A stretch of DNA of 64,000 nucleotides from Anaerolineae bacterium (GTDB taxonomy: Bacteria; Chloroflexota; Anaerolineae; B4-G1; SLSP01), in assembly GCA_049975385.1 (NCBI GenBank), contig JBNGDO010000003.1, forward strand, positions 5,460 through 69,459. Direction: 5' to 3'. This document shows positions 39,395-48,142 of this stretch, one piece after another (within the stretch, counting starts at the first letter, position 1; every line of letters begins with the position of its first letter). The notes under the pieces were generated by a model, which worked only from the letters and a program-made list of their open reading frames with translations, did no database searches and was not told where the DNA came from. A program made the translations under genes and the position numbers.

Positions 39395-42118
39395 TTATGG
39401 TTCTCCTACCATAGCTCGCAGGATTTCTTCCAGTGCGGCCTGTTCTTGCCCGTAGCACGTCCAATCGCCGGCTTCGAGGCAGGCTTGTGCGGCTTGATAG
39501 CGTTCCCAGGCCTGGGCGGCGAGCGTTTCCAGGTCGCCTTCTGTTGCGACTGGCGTTGTGACGTCGCCGCCGTTGAGGACTTGCAATAGGGCCTGATCTA
39601 GCGTCTCCGCCATAACGACGCGGTCATCGTAGGCAACGATGATGCGTATCAGCTCTGGCAATTGGCCTGATTCGGCTTCAAGATAGAGTGGCTCGACGTA
39701 GAGAAAGGTATCTTCGATCGGGATGACGAGCAAGTTGCCGCGTAACACCCGCGAGCCACGTTGGTTCCACAATGAGAGTTGCTGCGAGATAAGCGGATCC
39801 TGATCGGCGCGCGCCTCAACCTGCAATGGTCCGTATACCAGTTTGTCTTTGGAAAGCTTGACGATGCTCAGTTCCCCGTAATCGTCGCCGTCGCAATCGG
39901 CGAAGAGCCAGGCGATCATGTTCTGGCGCTGTTTGGGCGTATACGGGCGAATGAGCATAAATTCCACCTGCTCGGATCCAGGGGCGCGCATGATGACGTA
40001 GTAGGGTTCCATGGCTTGCTGGGCGGTCTCCACTAGTTCCTGCGGGATGTCCCACAGGTCCTCGCGGTTGTAAAAAACCTGTGGATCGCGCATGTGGTAG
40101 GTCGCGTACATATTCGACTGGTAGATGAATAATGTTTCGGGATAGCGCCAGTGATCGCGCAGCACTTGCGGCATCATTTCCACCGGCTTGAAAAGGTTGG
40201 GGAAGATGCGGGCATACGTGGCGGCGATGGGATCGTCAGGATCGATCAGGTAGAAGTTGATCTCGCCCGTGTAAGCGTCGATGGAGACCTTGACGCTGTT
40301 GCGAATGTAGTTGACGCCGCCCAGCGGCTCGGAGTAGGGGAAGTGGTCGGTCCAGGTGTAGGCATCTAGTAACCAGACAATGCTCGTAACTCCATCAGCG
40401 GTCTCGGCGATGACGGGGTAGGGGTCGTCATCGAACCACAGCATCGGCGCGATGGTTTGCGCGCGGTCGTGGAGGGTGCGGTGGAAGAGGGCGCGGCTGT
40501 CTTTGTCGAGCGCCGGTGAGAGGAGAAGCTGCGTGCTGCCAAAGCGCGTCGCCAACAGCATCCGTCGCAGGAGATTGCCCAATGCGACGCCGTCGGGGCC
40601 GCTGTAGCGCGAGTAGACGTTGGTGTCGCCCGCCGGGTAGTCGAATTCGTCCTCTTTGGCGTTGATGATGACGTAGTTCTTGGTCAATTCGCCGAAGTAA
40701 ATCTGCGGGCGTTCGATGTGCAGTTCCGGCGCTTCGCTGACCGGCGGGATGTCGCGCACGATCAGGTTGGGCAGGCCCTCACGGGTCACTTCGTTGGCAT
40801 AGTTCAGCGCGAGGCCGTAGCCGTGCGTGAAGATCATGTGGCGGTTGATCCACGTCTGGGCCTGTTCCGCCAACTCGTCCACGTCGATCTCCCGCGCGGA
40901 GAGCATCACCTGGCGCAGGTGTCCGTCGATGGTATAGCGGTCGATATCCACTTCGTTAAAGCTGTAGTAGAGGCGGATTTCCTGGAGTTGGCTGTAGGTG
41001 CGGAGCAGCGGACGATAATCCCATAGACGCACATTGCTGAGAATGTCGGCGTTGGTTTCAAGCTCCGTCGCTGTCAGAATTCCCGTGCCCGAGTACGTCT
41101 GCTCTTCAATTTGATCGAGACCGTAGGCATAGCGGGTGTAGCGGATGTTGTGCTCGATGTAGGGCTTTTCGACGATGAATTCGTTGGGTTCGACGGTGAA
41201 TTGTTGTATGGCGGCGGGATAGCCTGGACCAAGCGCCGAAACCGCCAACCAGAAAATGCCGATGATGAGCAATAGCTTCCACCTGCTGAAGAAGGCGTTG
41301 AGAATCAGGACGACAGCAGCCGCGAAAAAGAGCACGGCCTGGATTGTGTAAAGCGGCATGCGCGCGTTGATGTCGGTGTAACCAGCGCCGAAGACGACGC
41401 CCGTCGCGGATTGCAGCAGCCCGTAGCGGTTGAGCAGCCAGCCCAGGCCGATGAGGACCATCCACAGCGCGCCCAAAATCGACATGTGGGCAGTTGCGGC
41501 GCGGGTCTTCATCTGCCCGAAGATCGCGTAGCGTCCAAGAACGCCGGCGAATGTCAACGCGACCAATATCTTCGCGCGGGCGAGTAATGCTTCTAGCCAC
41601 GGTAGTGTGAAGATGTAGAAGCCGATGTCCTGCCGAAAAATCGGATCGGCCACCTCGAAGGGGACGCCGTTGTTGGCCAACAAGTAGACGCGCCACAGTC
41701 CGTTGAACATCAGACCGATAATCAGCCCCGCAAGAATAGCCGCCCCGGTAAAGAACAGTCGCAGTGGGCGCGTGGAATACGTGGTCGACGCGGTCGTTTG
41801 CCGCGTGGCACTTGTGCCTCGCCGGGTTCCAGTGAAGGCTCTGGTCGTGAAGCGCTCCTTTGGCGCAATCCAGTGCGGCAGGAAGCTCCAGTTTAGCAGC
41901 AGGAAAGCCAGTGCGATGAGCGCGGCGACAATCGTCAGTCTCAGGGAGGTCGCCAATCGTGTGGTGAAGATTTGAGTGTAGTCTAAGCTCTTGAACCAAA
42001 GGAAATCGGTGTAGAATGTGGCAAATGTTGAGGAGGTGACGCATAGCAGGAGGATGACGATCATCCCCAAACTGATCCAGGTTTGTGTCCGGCGCTTGTT
42101 GCGCGGTGTTTTCATCAT
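39395..42118 (-). CDS. UPF0182 family membrane protein
   Basis: 907-aa ORF with N-terminal multi-TM segments followed by a large soluble region. Length and architecture are typical of UPF0182. Confidence 0.65.
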
Positions 42119-42227
42119 GCAGTTTTCTCCATAGTGGTTTGCTTACAGTATATCCCCAAATTCTCAATCAACAAATCTCCAATCAATCTTTTCATCTTCA
42201 ATCTGCCAACCCATAATTTGAAAATGG

Positions 42228-42255
42228 TTGCAAGTTTTGCTAACTGTGGTATCAT
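42228..42255 (+). promoter_or_regulatory. Sigma70-like promoter for the ABC exporter leader
   Basis: TTGCAA -35 (42228..42233), 16-nt spacer, extended -10 TGgTATCAT (42247..42255). Confidence 0.55.
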
Positions 42256-42341
42256 TTCGGATGCTGTGCAGTCCGTCCATGTGACGGTTCGGTTTTGTCT
42301 ACGTGACTATCCATTCAGACTTGTGTTATGGAGGTTTGGCG

Positions 42342-42437
42342 ATGGCTAACTTATTCTATAATCTCAGGATCAAAGCGGAGGTTGTTCTCATGACCCGTGT
42401 CGTTTCCGTGACAGGGGGTCCCGAGCCGCCGGGATGA
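42342..42437 (+). CDS. Candidate leader peptide (31 aa, MANLFYNLRIKAEVVLMTRVVSVTGGPEPPG) upstream of the ABC exporter pair.
   Basis: ATG preceded by GGAGG at 8 nt. An internal ATG (M17) also has GGAGG at 9 nt. Ends Pro-Pro-Gly-stop. It lies in a roughly 400-nt 5' leader. Confidence 0.45.
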   Translation: MANLFYNLRIKAEVVLMTRVVSVTGGPEPPG

Positions 42438-42616
42438 CCTTTTGACCGTTTCTTCTCACAGGTAAAAAACATTCTCGTGATTTACCGTGGCCTGATCCGT
42501 CTATTTGCGGAACAGGCGAGCGAGCAATCGCTAGGCAAATCGCGGTCAATACGGTAATACCGGCGAGCGGGCCTCAACGAACGTTGGGGAGGGCTAGTTT
42601 TCATATAGCCCATAGT

Positions 42617-42646
42617 GCGCAAAAAGCACCCGCTCGCTTTTTGCGT
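42617..42646 (+). promoter_or_regulatory. Leader hairpin (candidate attenuator/terminator) with a competing upstream complement.
   Basis: Stem gcgcaaaaagc / gctttttgcgt with loop acccgctc. The segment 42563..42571 (gcgagcggg) is complementary to 42629..42637 (cccgctcgc), which allows an alternative antiterminator-like pairing. Confidence 0.4.
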
Positions 42647-42678
42647 CTCTGGCATCCGTTTAGTTTTACGTCAGAAGG

Positions 42679-44655
42679 TTGTTTGTAGGTGGAAAGATGT
42701 CCCAAAACATAGATCCAAAACTATTACAGAAACTATCAATCGATTTGAAGTCCGCGGTGCACAAGAACCGCGTGGCGGGGCTGTGGCACGTTATGGCTGG
42801 CTTCCGTTGGTTGTACGCCGGCGCGATGCTCGCCATTGTCCTGGGGGCGTTCATGCGCGTGTATTACTACCGTGTGGTGCAGTACGTGATCGACACGGTG
42901 GTAGGCGAAGGGCAAAACTCGCAGAATTTGCCCTGGCTTGCGCTGTCTTTTGTGGGCTTGGCTATCTTGGAAGGAACCTTCGCCTATCTGCGCGGCGTGT
43001 GGTCGGCTAAGACTGCTGAAGGTATCGTACTCCGATTGCGTGACTATCTCTACGATCACATGCAGCGGCTCACGTTTGCCTTCCATGATTACGCCAAGAC
43101 CGGTGAGTTGATCCAGCGCTCTACCTCAGACGTGGATGCGATGCGCCGCTTCTACGCGGATCAAGCGTTAGGTGTCGGGCGGATCGTGGCGCTGTTCGTC
43201 GTCAACTTGACTATGCTGCTGCGCATGAACACAAGGATCGGGTTGCTCTCAATTGTCGTGATGCCGTTCATTGTCGCGATGTCGTACTGGTTCTTTGGGC
43301 GTGTCTCGAAGGCATATAACCGCTATCAGGAGCAGGAGGCCAGGCTTTCGACGGTGCTACAGGAGAACCTGACCGGCGTGCGGGTTGTCAAGGCGTTTGC
43401 CCGGCAATCCTACGAGATCGACAAGTTTGACCGCGAGAACAGGGAGCGCTATCGCCTGGGCAAGAAATTGCTCATTATGCACTCTCTCTACTGGCCGCTG
43501 TCCGACATTCTCTGTGCCGGACAGACGATTCTGGTGATGACCGTGAGTGCGCTGATGGCCGTGCGCGGTGAGATCACCGTGGGCACGTACATCGCTGTGA
43601 TGGGGATGCTGACCTGGATCATCTGGCCGATGCGCAACCTGGGCCGGCTGATCGTGCAGGTGTCCACCGGGCTGGTTTCCTACCGCCGCGTGGCGGATGT
43701 GATCGAACAGGATCGCGAGGATATCGTCGCCGGGTCGGTGCCGCTGGACGCGCAAATTCGCGGCGCGATTGCCTTCGAGGACGTCAGCTTCGCCTATGAG
43801 CCGATGGTGGTGCTGCAGGATGAGGAGGACAAGAAGAAATCGGAGGCCCGCATCCGCGACGCCGGGCCAGAAAAAGACGAAGCGTTGAAACCAGTCGAAG
43901 TGCTGCACGACATCTCCTTCCGCTGTGCTCCGGGCGATGTGGTGGCGCTACTCGGTTCCACGGGATCGGGGAAGACCAGCATTATCAACCTCCTGCTGCG
44001 TTTCTACGACTATCAGGAGGGCAGTCTCAAGCTCGACGGTGTTGAGTTGACGGAATATCCGCGCAGTCTGCTGCGGCGCAACATCGGCATCGTGGAACAG
44101 GAGCCGTTCCTCTTCTCGCGCAGCATTCGCGACAACATCGCTTACGGGGCGGATCGCGAGGTTTCGCAGGAAGAGATCGAGCGCGCGGCACAGGCGGCCG
44201 CGATTCACGATATCATCCTCACGTTCCCGGAGGGATATGACACGATTGTCGGTGAGAAGGGGGTGACGCTCTCCGGCGGGCAGCGCCAGCGCGTAGCGAT
44301 TGCGCGCGCGTTGCTCAAGGATCCGCGCATCCTGGTGCTGGACGACGCGACCTCATCGGTGGACACCGAAACCGAGGAGCAAATCCAGCAGGCGTTGGAT
44401 GTGCTCATTCCGGGACGCACGACCTTCGTCGTCGCGCACCGTATCCAGACGGTGATGAACGCCGATCTGATCCTGGTGCTCGACAAGGGGCGCATCGTTC
44501 AGTCCGGCACGCACGCCGATCTGATTCAGCAACCGGGTCTGTACCACGATATCTACGAGATCCAATCGCGCATCGAAGTGGAAGTCGCAGAAGAAGTAGA
44601 GCGTGGCGTAGTCGAACCGGAATATGCGTTTGAGCCGGTGGGTGTACCGGCATAA
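42679..44655 (+). CDS. ABC transporter permease/ATP-binding protein (type I exporter half-transporter, subunit 1 of a heterodimer).
   Basis: 6-TM domain plus NBD. Walker A LLGSTGSGKTS, signature LSGGQRQR, Walker B ILVLDDATS. Contains an unusual roughly 30-aa charged insertion (QDEEDKKKSEARIRDAGPEKDEALKPVE) before the Walker A region. Confidence 0.85.
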   Translation: MFVGGKMSQNIDPKLLQKLSIDLKSAVHKNRVAGLWHVMAGFRWLYAGAMLAIVLGAFMRVYYYRVVQYVIDTVVGEGQNSQNLPWLALSFVGLAILEGTFAYLRGVWSAKTAEGIVLRLRDYLYDHMQRLTFAFHDYAKTGELIQRSTSDVDAMRRFYADQALGVGRIVALFVVNLTMLLRMNTRIGLLSIVVMPFIVAMSYWFFGRVSKAYNRYQEQEARLSTVLQENLTGVRVVKAFARQSYEIDKFDRENRERYRLGKKLLIMHSLYWPLSDILCAGQTILVMTVSALMAVRGEITVGTYIAVMGMLTWIIWPMRNLGRLIVQVSTGLVSYRRVADVIEQDREDIVAGSVPLDAQIRGAIAFEDVSFAYEPMVVLQDEEDKKKSEARIRDAGPEKDEALKPVEVLHDISFRCAPGDVVALLGSTGSGKTSIINLLLRFYDYQEGSLKLDGVELTEYPRSLLRRNIGIVEQEPFLFSRSIRDNIAYGADREVSQEEIERAAQAAAIHDIILTFPEGYDTIVGEKGVTLSGGQRQRVAIARALLKDPRILVLDDATSSVDTETEEQIQQALDVLIPGRTTFVVAHRIQTVMNADLILVLDKGRIVQSGTHADLIQQPGLYHDIYEIQSRIEVEVAEEVERGVVEPEYAFEPVGVPA

Positions 44656-44672
44656 CACGTAACGCGTGATGC

Positions 44673-46556
44673 GTGATCGCGAATTACGCATCACGGCTCA
44701 CGTATCAAGAGGGAACAGCAATGGCACAATCTTACGGATTCGAAGAAGAAGAATTTACGACGAAGTTCAACGGTCGCGTGGTCATGCGGATCATGCGTCA
44801 AATTACGCCGTATTGGCGCTGGATTCTCGGTTTCATCGTGATGATCGCGCTCACGGCGGTGGCTGATTCGTACTTCACCTACTTGAGCAAGCAGCTCATC
44901 GATGAAGGCATCGTCGCCGGGGACACGGCGCGGCTGACGCAACTGCTGGTGAGGTATGGCGGTCTGGCCGTGTTACAGGCGATTACGGTGTTCTGTTTTG
45001 TCTACCTGGCGGGCATCTTGGGCGAGCGCGTGCAGTACGATATGCGCAAGCAGCTCTTCAATCACTTGCAGGCGCTTTCTTTCTCGTACTTTGATAAGAC
45101 GCCGGTAGGGTGGATCATGTCGCGCGTCACCTCAGACTCCGGGCGTATTGCTAACCTGGTGACATGGGGTTTTCTGGACGTCACCTGGGCCGTACTCAAT
45201 ATCATCACCTCGCTTACATTCATGGCGATCATCAACTGGCGCCTGGCGTTGATCGTACTCGTGATCATCCCGATGATGATCGCGGTCTCGTTCTACTTCC
45301 GGCAGCGTATTCTGGTGCAGTACCGTGATGTGCGCAAGCTCAACTCGATGATCACCGGCGCTTACAACGAAAGTATCGCTGGCGTGCGGGTGGTGAAGGC
45401 GCTCGTACGCGAGAAGAAGAACCTGGAAGAGTTCAGGGAAACTTCACAGTCGATGTACCATGCCGCTTACCGTGCCGCGTGGCTTTCGGCACTGTTCTTG
45501 CCTGCTGTGCAGATCATCGGCGCATTCGGCATCGGGGCCGTGGTGTGGTATGGTGGTATTCAGGCGCGCGTGACGAGTGCGTCGCAGACGGCGATCACCG
45601 TGGGTGGTATCCAGGCGTTCCTGTCGTACCTGACGTTCATCATGTGGCCGATCCAGGACCTCGCACGGGTCTACGCGGAGACGCAGCGGTCGGTTGCCTC
45701 GGCAGAGCGGGTGTTCTCGCTGATTGACGCCCAGCCCGATGTGGTCGATCGCGAGGGTGCGATCGACCCCGGTTTCGTGCGCGGTGAGGTGGCGTTCGAG
45801 GATGTGACCTTCCGTTACGAAGAAGGCAAGGATGTGCTAACAGATTTCAACCTGCACGTCGATCCCGGCGAGCACATCGCCATCGTAGGGCCGACGGGTG
45901 GTGGAAAGACGACGATCGTCAATCTGCTTTGCCGCTTCTACGAACCGACGGATGGTGTCGTCCGCATCGACGATCGCGACTATACCACGCTGACGCAGCA
46001 CGCAATCCAGTCGCGTATCGGCGTGGTGTTGCAGACACCGCACCTGTTCTCCGGCACCATTCGAGATAACATCCGCTACGGCAAGCTGGATGCCACCGAC
46101 AAAGAGGTGGAACAAGCTGCGAAAGTGGCGCACGCTCACGACTTCATCGTGGAGATGGATAAAGGTTACGACGAGGACGTCGGTGAGGGCGGCAATCTGC
46201 TTTCTGTGGGACAGAAGCAGCTCGTGAGCATCGCGCGGGCGGTGCTTGCCGATCCCGCCATCCTTATCCTGGACGAGGCTACCAGTTCGGTGGATACACT
46301 GACCGAGGTGAACGTCCAGCACGGGATGGAGGCGTTGATGGCCGGGCGCACGAGCTTCGTTATCGCGCACCGGCTCTCGACGATCAAGCGGGCGGACCGC
46401 ATCCTCGTCATCAAGGCGGGGCGCATCGCCGAGATGGGCACGCACAGCGAGCTGATCCGCGCGCGCGGTCACTACTACGACCTCTACACCCGCCAGTTCC
46501 GTCGCGAGCGGGAGCAGGTGTACGGCATGGGAGAATTCGCGGCAGCAGTTGCATAG
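44673..46556 (+). CDS. ABC transporter permease/ATP-binding protein (exporter subunit 2).
   Basis: Walker A VGPTGGGKTT, signature LSVGQKQL, Walker B ILILDEATS. Lies 17 nt downstream of subunit 1. Confidence 0.85.
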   Translation: MIANYASRLTYQEGTAMAQSYGFEEEEFTTKFNGRVVMRIMRQITPYWRWILGFIVMIALTAVADSYFTYLSKQLIDEGIVAGDTARLTQLLVRYGGLAVLQAITVFCFVYLAGILGERVQYDMRKQLFNHLQALSFSYFDKTPVGWIMSRVTSDSGRIANLVTWGFLDVTWAVLNIITSLTFMAIINWRLALIVLVIIPMMIAVSFYFRQRILVQYRDVRKLNSMITGAYNESIAGVRVVKALVREKKNLEEFRETSQSMYHAAYRAAWLSALFLPAVQIIGAFGIGAVVWYGGIQARVTSASQTAITVGGIQAFLSYLTFIMWPIQDLARVYAETQRSVASAERVFSLIDAQPDVVDREGAIDPGFVRGEVAFEDVTFRYEEGKDVLTDFNLHVDPGEHIAIVGPTGGGKTTIVNLLCRFYEPTDGVVRIDDRDYTTLTQHAIQSRIGVVLQTPHLFSGTIRDNIRYGKLDATDKEVEQAAKVAHAHDFIVEMDKGYDEDVGEGGNLLSVGQKQLVSIARAVLADPAILILDEATSSVDTLTEVNVQHGMEALMAGRTSFVIAHRLSTIKRADRILVIKAGRIAEMGTHSELIRARGHYYDLYTRQFRREREQVYGMGEFAAAVA

Positions 46557-48090: not shown

Positions 48091-48109
48091 TCAAAAGTCG
48101 AAAGTCAAA

Positions 48110-48142
48110 AGTCCAAAGCCGGACCGGCTTTGGACTTTTTTT
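48110..48142 (+). terminator. Rho-independent terminator
   Basis: 11-bp stem agtccaaagcc / ggctttggact with loop ggacc, followed by TTTTTT. It is preceded by a GTCAAAAGTC-type short repeat. Confidence 0.8.

Follow-up and report, generated by a model that had tools for sequence, protein, structure and literature searches.

The heterodimeric ABC exporter operon of an Anaerolineae bacterium is preceded by a leader in which the position of a ribosome most likely decides whether transcription reaches the two pump genes. Ribosome-mediated attenuation as a general idea is strongly supported by comparison with relatives. For the specific version in which a ribosome stalled on the leader allows a stem, P1, to terminate transcription, we see about an even chance. 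The comparison showed that the leader ORF, a pairing box at its end, three mutually exclusive helices and a U run are all conserved. Control of this type is already known, but the family described here is new and well defined. Coordinates refer to the window (the whole stretch of 64,000 nt that was analyzed), in which the following features are discussed:

42228..42255, + strand: sigma-70-type promoter (consensus scan, 9/12 with extended -10)
42273..42287, + strand: small 5' stem-loop CCGUC-loop-GACGG, flagged by a terminator scan
42330..42334, + strand: leader Shine-Dalgarno sequence (SD) GGAGG
42342..42437, + strand: leader ORF, 31 codons plus TGA, peptide MANLFYNLRIKAEVVLMTRVVSVTGGPEPPG*
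42420..42432, + strand: region 0, ORF end CCC GAG CCG CCG G, pairs with 42560-42571
42442..42449, + strand: region 1, UUGACCGU, partner of region 2 (folding)
42457..42532, + strand: spacer with three local hairpins (folding, alignment A1 columns 340-365)
42542..42549, + strand: region 2, GCGGUCAA, partner of region 1 (folding)
42560..42571, + strand: region 3, CCGGCGAGCGGG, invariant in 23 aligned loci
42572..42611, + strand: hairpins P2 (42572-78 / 42583-89) and P3 (42591-96 / 42606-11), RNAalifold on 18 sequences
42617..42646, + strand: 11-bp hairpin T, GCGCAAAAAGC / GCUUUUUGCGU, from the full-length MFE structure
42629..42646, + strand: region 4, CCCGCUCGC (42629-37), then UUUUU (42638-42) and GCGU, proposed intrinsic terminator
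42647..42696, + strand: variable linker and ABC1 RBS (AGGUGG, 42687-92); relatives carry unrelated inserts
42697..44655, + strand: ABC1 half-transporter, 652 aa, ABC_membrane and ABC_tran domains
44721..46556, + strand: ABC2 half-transporter, 611 aa, partner of ABC1 (motifs)

Leader ORF, exporter genes and their relatives

The promoter named in the preliminary description is well founded. It consists of a -35 hexamer TTGCAA (42228-33), a 16-nt spacer and an extended -10 TG-n-TATCAT (42247-55), and little or no variation is seen in either hexamer among 10 aligned related leaders. Nucleotide similarity to relatives starts exactly at the -35 hexamer, from which the whole leader is 72–82% identical in nine related genomes. 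Transcription would start at about 42262. The stem-loop near this putative 5' end has an invariant stem and a variable loop in the 10-sequence alignment; it could, at a guess, be a 5' stabilizer.

The 31-codon ORF with its strong SD and PPG-stop end (ATG at 42342, TGA at 42435-37) is present as first described, and so is the internal start giving a 15-aa version (SD GGAGG 42377-81, ATG 42390). An internal ATG with an SD, at codons -14 to -16, is seen again in several clades. In every clade, a strong SD is properly spaced from the ATG of an ORF of 29–36 codons (16 in L016/L017), despite diverged peptide sequence. The ORF ends in P/S-P-G/D/A-stop, with last codons xCG CCG GNN-stop, at 24 of 25 genome loci and at 23 metagenome loci, and every locus with these codons has an ABC1 homologue 36–133 nt downstream. 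The leader peptide was absent from the protein collection searched and is thus unannotated.

Conservation of the peptide is confined to its length and its C-terminal few residues, and one relative carries an in-frame 6-nt deletion. Val and Gly codons vary synonymously, and at a site from which the RNA constraint has shifted, L020 still encodes Pro-Pro, though with different codons (CCA CCC); both observations argue that the peptide is likewise under selection.

Key parts of the leader recur at about 48 Anaerolineae (Chloroflexota) loci, namely in 25 genomes and on about 23 metagenome contigs. All described elements except T are found in each clade before orthologous ABC pairs, the recurrence of the promoter referring to the alignment of the window's clade. 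The small ORF was expected to end in PPG-stop in these relatives; SPG, SPA and PPD endings occur too. The preliminary description would have been contradicted by a lack of conservation of the ORF and its alternative structures, and we found the ORF and the anti-P1/P1 pair (see below) to be conserved. The motif was found only together with this leader ORF and ABC operon, and the leader architecture is more than chance. We did not find a published description of this leader family.

The two genes had been described as a pair of half-transporters with canonical NBD motifs. The pair stands, but one ATP site is degenerate. ABC1 has the Walker B sequence LVLDDATS, in which Asp replaces the catalytic Glu, and a canonical signature (LSGGQ), while ABC2 has a canonical Walker B (LILDEATS) and a degenerate signature (LSVGQ). 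These motifs predict a heterodimeric exporter with one degenerate site. The label BmrCD-like fits the class of transporter and the logic of its regulation but not orthology, since TM288 and TmrA outscore BmrD as relatives.

Competing helices in the leader

The PPG codons of the leader double as an RNA pairing box. Region 0, the 5' strand of a candidate antiterminator helix (anti-P1), contains the invariant box CGCCGG (42427-32), which is retained by all PPG, SPG, SPA and PPD endings, while the third position of the Gly codon and the stop codon vary. The box pairs with the invariant CCGGCG that opens the complementary segment noticed earlier, and pairing extends into a long, imperfect and covarying duplex. 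Overall, the final five codons of the ORF plus the 12 nt beyond its stop (regions 0 and 1) can pair with sequences about 110–130 nt downstream (regions 2 and 3). Region 1 lies 5–12 nt past the stop codon, within the footprint of a ribosome located there. Its helix with region 2 differs in sequence among clades and keeps its complementarity. In a swap test of this middle part of anti-P1, cognate pairs gave -18.0 kcal/mol versus -12.5 kcal/mol for non-cognate ones, and 0 of 20000 permutations reached the observed sum. RNAduplex found anti-P1 pairing at all 23 loci tested (-33 to -44 kcal/mol), and in L020 both box partners had changed together, to CUCGCGGG:CUCGCGAG. The presence at all tested loci, the covariation among clades and the double change in L020 argue firmly for a real helix. 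The stretch between regions 1 and 2 is variable among relatives and carries a window-specific insertion with a partial copy of the P1 5' strand (GGCGAGCGAG); it may be a spacer or a pause region.

Region 3, the only exact copy of its sequence in the window, has two alternative partners, the ORF end and region 4. The complementarity claimed earlier between 42563..42571 and the loop and 3' arm of the hairpin was confirmed as exact: GCGAGCGGG (42563-42571) matches CCCGCUCGC (42629-42637), i.e. the T loop and the start of its 3' arm. The resulting stem, P1, competes with anti-P1. RNAalifold kept 10 of its pairs in 18 of 18 sequences, and a run of 3–5 U directly follows P1 at all 25 genome loci, which had been ascertained via protein and not via the P1/U-run motif. 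Since the U run is always directly 3' of P1, this stem is likely an intrinsic terminator, and more likely a terminator than an antiterminator. P1 never varies and so provides no covariation evidence itself. In the window's clade it joins P2 and P3 in a three-way junction, whereas in other clades the interior is one long irregular hairpin. P2 is 97.6% paired and P3 is fully (100%) paired, and three pairs show compensatory changes. Conservation of the base stem and U run alone, with a variable interior, is as expected of a terminator. Canonical hairpin-plus-U terminators were found at gene ends elsewhere in the genome. It is unusual for a terminator that the P1 stem encloses 56 nt with two hairpins. 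There are also two outliers that fit imperfectly: in L016/L017 the ORF retains CCG CCG GAU and P1 is without CCGGCG, and the box of L020 is at or beyond the border of the footprint that a stop-codon ribosome would have.

Two further conserved features were observed in this region. The terminator model gives no role to a GCGUSUCUGG block after the U run, and it does not account for a hairpin sequestering region 4 in readthrough transcripts.

The proposed switch and its alternatives

From the arrangement of these elements we infer translation of the leader ORF, termination at P1, the direction of the switch and its inducing signal as follows. The sigma-70-type promoter would yield a leader of about 435 nt, and the short ORF would be translated from strong SDs up to its Pro-Pro-Gly-stop terminus. 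There the ribosome would dwell, as PPG and the Gly/Pro-stop context are slow for translation and release. Its footprint would mask regions 0 and 1, so that region 3 stays unpaired, P1 can form and transcription ends ahead of ABC1. If leader translation were slowed, blocked early or absent, anti-P1 would form once region 3 has been made, the base of P1 could not close, and RNA polymerase would read through into the exporter genes. Possible triggers are antibiotics that inhibit translation, or translation stress of another kind. The stalling-driven attenuation first proposed keeps its components (ORF, SD, P-P-G-stop and competing helices, conserved with covariation across clades), but its logic is probably inverted, because P1 and not T precedes the invariant U run. 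Arrest-type leader peptides usually turn genes on upon stalling; in the proposed switch, the opposite would hold and a stall would turn the operon off.

Folding of the leader, suggested earlier for telling terminator from antiterminator, did reveal mutually exclusive folds, but P1 with its U run rather than T looks terminator-like. For free RNA at the decision point, P1 was closed at its base at 7 of 31 loci; with the footprint of a stop-codon ribosome masked, the number rose to 29 of 31. The box was paired to the ORF end at 23 of 31 loci in free RNA and at none with the mask. In transcripts ending before region 4, anti-P1 was the MFE structure at all seven loci tested, with 10–11 of the 12 region 3 nucleotides paired to the ORF end. 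For the window, equilibrium folding without a ribosome yielded P1 (eight of nine pairs had probabilities of 0.97–1.0, the apical pair 0.51), and the estimated barrier out of the anti-P1 state was only 3.2 kcal/mol. Barriers of 8–13.5 kcal/mol were obtained for five of six other loci tested, and 0.0 for L002, where the MFE structure stays anti-P1. With P1 favored and the barrier low, either the antiterminator of the window would need to work kinetically, or the energy model is not fine enough to describe it.

It is conceivable, though in our view unlikely, that a stall at PPG-stop frees region 3 for P1 to act as an antiterminator that blocks T (a terminator or RBS mask), switching the exporter on in response to, e.g., ribosome-targeting drugs or low EF-P activity. 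T and P1 are mutually exclusive, and the MFE structure of full-length free RNA combines anti-P1 with T, which matches the classical arrangement of an OFF state in naked RNA. Selection acts on the peptide near its C-terminus, its last residues form a motif known for strong stalling, and resistance-gene arrest peptides normally induce when stalled (ermC, tnaC). However, T (91% paired across the window's clade) shows no compensatory changes, forms only weakly in L006 and L007 and is not formed in other clades, where the invariant U run after P1 would be left unaccounted for. P1 would also be an oddly designed antiterminator, as it overlaps just the T loop and 2–3 nt of the 3' arm. The hairpin singled out at first is present at 42617-42646 but not conserved beyond the window's clade. 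Being weak or absent elsewhere and followed by a U tract in no clade (e.g. CUCUGGCA), T makes a poor terminator. The alternative once offered, sequestration of the RBS, is unlikely because the distance between switch and ABC1 start codon is 55–159 nt across relatives, unrelated inserts included.

Ribosome occupancy of the stop codon, or the choice between anti-P1 and P1, might instead govern the loading of Rho (as in tnaC), cleavage of the long duplex by an RNase, or mRNA stability, so that the output would not be intrinsic termination. The long imperfect duplex of anti-P1, the resemblance of the Pro motif by the stop codon to TnaC, and the GCGUSUCUGG block would fit, but a GC-rich stem with a U run is a textbook intrinsic terminator of the type used elsewhere in the genome, and inspection of the sequence revealed no evident C-rich unstructured tract beside the stop codon. 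We therefore consider this rather improbable. Still less probable is a riboswitch-like element in which P1 and the three-way junction bind a small molecule or protein and the leader ORF is secondary. Invariance of CCGGCGAGCGGG and CCCGCUCG in all clades next to covarying helices, and a position before an exporter, are in keeping with a riboswitch. Yet the differing interior of P1 among clades argues against a ligand pocket, a comparison of the leader with Rfam up to E<=10 gave no match, the motif was found only with this ORF and operon, and region 3 is invariant partly because it needs two pairing partners, one of them coding. That the ORF, conserved beside the exporter and at some positions under amino acid-level selection, encodes a functional (e.g. 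exported or signalling) peptide for the pump, with incidental or mRNA-stabilizing structures, is very improbable, since most of the peptide is unconserved, neither transporter has a peptidase domain, and covariation ties the ORF end to a downstream helix competing with the stem and U run.

Comparison with known attenuators

Features of the Anaerolineae leader have precedents in described systems. PPG causes ribosome stalling unless EF-P acts (PMC5021804). In pheL, the level of basal readthrough is set by ribosome release at the stop codon, and Pro codons at that site also act as partners in base pairing (PMC3082878). The Pro motif near the stop codon of the leader resembles TnaC, in which a stop-codon-stalled ribosome blocks Rho. 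In the BmrB model, efficient leader translation leads to the terminator and slowed translation to the antiterminator; the bmrB terminator lies within the ORF (PMC4191407), whereas P1 is located downstream of it. Slow or absent translation would give readthrough in the Anaerolineae leader, the same logic as in trp/pheA and BmrB.

A conserved small ORF and competing RNA helices in the leader of a heterodimeric ABC exporter

Elements of the leader and of the exporter genes
42228–42255, + strand: promoter TTGCAA-16-TATCAT with an upstream TG, scoring 9/12
42342–42437, + strand: leader ORF of 31 codons behind GGAGG (from sequence and conservation)
42390, + strand: internal start, a second GGAGG with ATG (from sequence)
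42617–42646, + strand: T, an 11-bp hairpin in the minimum free energy (MFE) fold of the full-length free RNA
42697–44655, + strand: ABC1, half-transporter with Pfam domains PF00664 (ABC_membrane) and PF00005 (ABC_tran)
44721–46556, + strand: ABC2, half-transporter with the same two domains, PF00664 (ABC_membrane) and PF00005 (ABC_tran)

The promoter that the preliminary description had placed before the leader is present, and similarity to nine relatives starts exactly at its -35 hexamer. The window belongs to a metagenome-assembled genome of the Anaerolineae (Chloroflexota). Our comparative sample came from a scan of one genome per species, which yielded 80 loci encoding ABC1 relatives (L001–L080). 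In the nine closest loci (ABC1 83–93% identical at the protein level), the leader DNA is 72–82% identical from the -35 hexamer on. About 10 nt past the inferred transcription start lies a 5-bp stem-loop (CCGUC...GACGG followed by UUCGGUUUUG, 42273–42296) that was scored as terminator-like in a scan; its stem is invariant and its loop variable among the relatives.

The 31-codon ORF with its strong SD sequence was likewise confirmed and is intact in all nine closest loci; one close relative carries an in-frame 6-nt deletion. In this close clade the centre of the peptide varies freely and the C-terminal ...SV.GGP(E/Q)PPG is kept, mostly by third-position changes, with synonymous variation at the Val and Gly codons. 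Over the whole ORF there is no excess of third-position changes in the close clade (variable columns by codon position: 15/10/13), and coding selection shows up in the C-terminal half alone, besides the upkeep of the reading frame. In distant loci (ABC1 identity 67–76%) the peptide is largely different, yet a strong SD and ATG open an ORF of 29–36 codons that ends in PPG, PPD(Y), SPG or PPV before the stop. The SD and ATG were found in every clade, including L016 and L017, where the ORF has 16 codons. The strong SDs and the synonymous changes at Val and Gly codons hint indirectly that the ORF may be translated.

A pattern scan of metagenome contigs added 23 members; in each, the ORF precedes the motif by 76–132 nt, and an ABC1 homologue follows 36–133 nt downstream. 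About 45 of the 69 metagenome matches were discarded as chance hits, located inside long ORFs of high-GC contigs, or as unrelated palindromes. Conservation of the small ORF upstream of orthologous ABC pairs now extends to 24 genome and 23 metagenome loci; ABC1 homologues below about 62% identity (54–61%, L026–L080) have neither this type of ORF nor the motif. The protein collection contained no exact match to the leader peptide.

The internal SD and ATG (42390) could also be verified. A second in-frame ATG with an SD-like sequence, 14–16 codons before the stop, occurs in several clades (in the window and in L011, L012, L014, L015, L019 and L024), so that the leader seems to have conserved two nested starts. 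The 16-codon variant (L016:2715-2935 and L017:146-365; MSTSNFVATHSARPPD*) is approximately the size of the internal-start version in the window.

ABC1 and ABC2 are separated by 65 nt. The earlier reading as a pair of half-transporters holds, as each protein contains both domains, and the motifs read from the translations indicate one degenerate ATP site. ABC1 has the Walker B sequence LVLDDATS, in which Asp replaces the catalytic Glu, and the signature LSGGQ, and ABC2 has LILDEATS with LSVGQ. Because of the Glu to Asp change after Walker B in ABC1 and the non-canonical signature of ABC2, the pair displays the pattern of heterodimeric type IV (ABCB-like) exporters in which one of the ATP sites is degenerate. 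The best matches among solved bacterial structures are TM288, TmrA/B and BmrD.

Several further features of the locus were recorded. The ABC1 NBD carries an insertion of about 25–30 residues rich in Lys, Glu and Asp (...VVLQDEEDKKKSEARIRDAGPEKDEALKPVEV..., window 43800–43900, residues ~368–400) between the first two beta strands, where the HMM matches break; close homologues are similarly long. The public ABC1 annotation (P0001, 632 aa) begins 20 codons later, at a GTG at 42757 instead of the ATG at 42697; the long N-terminus from the latter, behind AGGUGG, is kept as MSQN... in homologues of 652–657 aa. The spacer between the two genes (44657–44700) holds a 13-bp hairpin (-23 kcal/mol) with direct and inverted copies of the heptamer GCGTGAT. 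In relatives (L001–L011) the same spacer contains other tandem heptamers (ATCATGA x4, TTCGTAA x3, AACGTGA x5), and similar repeats form the inserts between terminator and RBS in the leaders of L004, L005 and L007. Together they give the impression of one family of short tandem heptamers occupying intergenic DNA in these genomes. The divergent upstream neighbour (39395–42118, - strand) encodes a 907-aa membrane protein of the UPF0182 family (PF03699, E=1.9e-278), beyond which lie genes for a GH5 cellulase, tagaturonate epimerase (UxaE) and glucuronate isomerase (UxaC).

Competing helices between the leader ORF and ABC1

Segments of the leader that take part in the helices (all + strand)
42420–42432: region 0, end of the leader ORF, with the box CGCCGG at 42427–42432
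42442–42449: region 1
42542–42549: region 2
42560–42571: region 3
42629–42637: region 4
42638–42642: U run

The complementary segment noticed in the preliminary description, GCGAGCGGG (42563–42571), is fully complementary to CCCGCUCGC (42629–42637); their pairing is referred to as P1 in this text. RNAalifold on 18 sequences of the window's clade returned P1 (10 pairs, kept in every sequence) and two helices enclosed by it, P2 and P3. P3 shows compensatory changes, and a separate pair count also backs both P2 and P3. In other clades the interior of P1 is one long irregular hairpin, not a three-way junction. Common to all clades are the GC-rich base stem of 9–10 bp, which encloses 50–60 nt, and a run of 3–5 U directly after it, present in 25/25 loci that had been found via the protein and not via the motif. 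Since the base stem and the U run are shared while the interior is not, the element is likely an intrinsic-terminator signature rather than a ligand pocket, and we regard P1 as a putative intrinsic terminator between the ORF and the structural gene. A terminator stem that encloses this much sequence, and two hairpins, is unusual. The terminator model also leaves without explanation a conserved GCGUSUCUGG after the U run and the hairpins that capture region 4 after readthrough.

Canonical hairpins followed by U stand at 48107–48139, 3496–3461 (- strand) and 19304–19274 (- strand), with 14–16 bp and A and U tracts, right after an M29 peptidase gene and two other genes. As these long perfect hairpins at gene ends show, this Chloroflexota genome does employ intrinsic terminators of the canonical kind. 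In the leader spacer, an insertion specific to the window (42515–42533, GAGCGAGCAATCGCTAGGC), missing in the nine relatives, creates GGCGAGCGAG, a near copy of the 5' strand of P1, and has a small hairpin of its own.

The end of the leader ORF is conserved as RNA. Its final codons read xCG CCG GNN in 24/25 genome loci and in all metagenome members, whether they encode SPG (UCG CCG GGN), SPA (UCG CCG GCN), PPD (CCG CCG GAU) or PPG; the stop codon varies, as does the third base of the codon before it, and the box is kept. Most members end in PPG or PPD, and the one clade with SPG or SPA retains the box as well. CGCCGG, which is invariant, is the complement of CCGGCG, likewise invariant, at the start of CCGGCGAGCGGG (42560–42571). 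According to RNAduplex, the ORF end plus about 25 nt past the stop pairs with about 35 nt up to and including the first half of CCGGCGAGCGGG, and this helix, anti-P1, was obtained in 23/23 loci at -33 to -44 kcal/mol. Its middle portion differs by clade with complementarity kept: UUGACCGU:GCGGUCAA in the window, GCGCUAUCGCUU:AAGCGAAUAGC in L014 and GCUAGC:GCUAGC in L051. When strands were swapped between clades with the conserved box excluded, cognate pairs averaged -18.0 kcal/mol versus -12.5 kcal/mol for partners from other clades, and none of 20000 permutations of nine clade representatives matched the observed cognate energy sum. Mutually exclusive folds, as proposed at the outset, are borne out among orthologous loci, with anti-P1 covarying between clades.

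Two variants do not fit the model cleanly. In L020, both CGCCGG and CCGGCG are gone and CUCGCGGG pairs with CUCGCGAG instead; Pro-Pro is still encoded, by CCA CCC. In L016 and L017, P1 is formed by CGAGCGGAUC and GAUUCCGCUCG followed by UUUUU, and the CCGGCG partner is missing though the ORF keeps CCG CCG GAU. Because L020 changed both partners of the box yet kept Pro-Pro, the ORF end appears to be under both RNA and peptide constraint. As SPG and SPA members keep the box and L020 keeps Pro-Pro with other codons, the two constraints are confounded where conservation of an arrest motif is concerned.

Folding at the decision point and the proposed direction of the switch

The helices form a mutually exclusive chain: regions 0/1 with 2/3 (anti-P1), region 3 with region 4 (P1 and U run), and region 4 with region 5 (T). 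With the stop codon in the A site, a ribosome extends over approximately 42420–42448, that is, the whole of region 0 and almost the whole of region 1. We folded the RNA present when the polymerase reaches the U run for 31 loci, with or without this footprint masked. In the free RNA, the P1 base was closed in 7/31 loci and the box was paired to the ORF end in 23/31; with the footprint masked, the numbers were 29/31 and 0/31. Before region 4 is synthesized, anti-P1 was the MFE structure in all seven loci examined.

At equilibrium, P1 is favoured in the window leader even without a ribosome, and masking the segment after the stop codon produced no switch there. The comparison of the two alternative folds thus gave a switch in the 31-locus decision-point test and none in the window leader alone at equilibrium. 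Because P1 wins at equilibrium, anti-P1 would need to act kinetically, or else the energy model is inadequate; thermodynamics alone is no proof of the mechanism. The barrier for leaving anti-P1 is 3.2 kcal/mol in the window and 8–13.5 kcal/mol in five other loci; L002, at 0.0 kcal/mol, remains in anti-P1.

The masking result and the prevalence of anti-P1 before region 4 appears make a two-state attenuator the best reading, the direction of the switch being a prediction of the model. A ribosome parked at the slow PPG-stop would let P1 form and transcription terminate. If leader translation is delayed, blocked early or absent, anti-P1 would form first and the polymerase would read through. Peptides that end in Gly or Pro are released slowly, and PPD is an EF-P-dependent stall motif. 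PPG is documented as such a motif, too (PMC5021804). Of the original proposal, ribosome-mediated attenuation is retained as the likely mechanism, with a conserved ORF and competing helices, but the direction would be inverted, as the parked ribosome would now bring about termination.

The originally proposed direction, in which a stalled ribosome turns the exporter on, would agree with the fact that arrest-type leader peptides normally induce on stalling. We nevertheless consider it improbable, because its control hairpin T lacks a U tract and compensatory changes and is absent outside the window's clade. T does exist at the described position; it is topologically incompatible with P1 and is part of the MFE fold when the full-length RNA is free. 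As a terminator it was rejected: L006 and L007 have only a weak form of it, and other clades have unrelated structures in its place. Masking of the ABC1 RBS had been suggested in its place. The linker between P1 and the ABC1 start, however, ranges from 55 to 159 nt and holds unrelated inserts, which speaks against RBS sequestration and favours a decision at P1.

It is also conceivable that the C-terminal peptide of the window's clade, ...R-x-A-S-V-x-G-G-P-E-P-P-G-stop, is a true nascent-chain arrest sequence whose last codons double as antiterminator strand, though we hold this to be doubtful. If true, the leader would serve specifically to sense how much peptidyl-transferase or EF-P capacity there is, some class of compounds that target the ribosome, or a metabolite that binds in the exit tunnel. 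It would then represent a new arrest-peptide family controlling a Chloroflexota exporter, in which, unusually, a parked ribosome might bring about termination.

An output through Rho or RNase in place of intrinsic termination has a small chance of being correct, given the stem and U run. A riboswitch-like role of the P1 junction is very unlikely and was rejected, since the interior differs in architecture between clades (three-way junction in one, one long hairpin in others), and Rfam gave no match to the leader, neither at the gathering threshold for the window nor in a permissive scan of 42100–42800.

Relation to known leader systems

Our literature searches for a Chloroflexi leader-peptide attenuator, and for attenuators with polyproline or Pro-stop leader peptides, returned nothing specific, and no PPG-stop leader. 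To our knowledge, leader-peptide attenuators come almost entirely from Proteobacteria, Firmicutes and Actinobacteria, and we know of almost no characterised RNA-level regulation in Chloroflexota. The leader would give a well-defined example from this phylum, and its competing helices are already outlined by about 48 natural variants. It would also suggest an exporter responsive to translation stress in Anaerolineae, which are abundant but rarely cultured and occur in sludge, sediments and hot springs. For annotation pipelines and transcriptome analyses of these genomes, the unannotated small ORF and the likely premature terminator are relevant. The six-base box, which serves as Pro-Pro-Gly codons (a known slow spot for ribosomes) and as a strand of a regulatory helix, is a clean natural case of dual coding and well suited for telling constraints on the peptide apart from those on the RNA.

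Leaders such as ermC and cat share the short ORF, the alternative helices and the ribosome as sensor of translation inhibitors. Most of them are controlled at the level of translation, as the ribosome stalled by the drug makes the RBS accessible; in the window family, by contrast, the RBS is separated from the switch by that variable linker. Here the stem and U run point to transcriptional control of the exporter.

TnaC and other stop-proximal arrest peptides also have a Pro-containing C-terminus at the stop and hold the ribosome at the leader end. TnaC senses tryptophan and acts by blocking Rho, whereas the ribosome on the window leader would mask an RNA strand. Moreover, the PP motif is not universal in the family, the SPG and SPA endings lacking it but keeping the RNA box.

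In bmrB-bmrCD of B. subtilis, a leader ORF likewise precedes the genes of an ABC exporter, again a heterodimer in which one ATP site is degenerate. In the published model, efficient translation of bmrB yields the terminator and antibiotic-slowed translation the antiterminator and readthrough (Reilman et al. 2014, PMC4191407). Terminator, antiterminator and anti-antiterminator all lie inside the 162-nt ORF (nucleotides 60–162), and an untranslated bmrB gives low expression (PMC4191407). The window ORF, in contrast, ends at 42437, far from the putative terminator at 42560–42642, and its untranslated leader is predicted to read through. The label BmrCD-like is thus apt for the exporter type and the attenuation logic but not for the terminator position, and ABC2 matches TM288 (E=1.4e-113) and TmrA (6e-111) better than BmrD (YheH, 6.6e-99). 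With the terminator outside the ORF and the transporters not established as BmrC/BmrD orthologues, the leader does not strictly belong to the bmrB family.

A further parallel is with trpL, pheL and hisL of E. coli, in which a short translated leader ORF goes together with a series of helices that exclude one another, the last being the terminator stem with its U run. There, the terminator wins when the ribosome sits on the stop codon and the antiterminator when it is delayed upstream, the same logic as proposed here. The pheL peptide has a conserved Pro before the stop at its C-terminus, its basal level of readthrough is set by release of the ribosome, and its Pro codons also act as pairing partners (PMC3082878). 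No protector helix that would terminate untranslated RNA was found in the window leader. By its working principle, the leader would thus operate like a member of a well-known class, leader-peptide transcription attenuation. It differs from the E. coli leaders in its Chloroflexota host and the exporter that it would control, in having no run of regulatory codons for one amino acid, in a conserved C-terminal P-P-G-stop whose Pro-Pro-Gly codons form the CGCCGG box and with it the antiterminator strand, and in a branched terminator about 190 nt past the stop codon that encloses extra hairpins.
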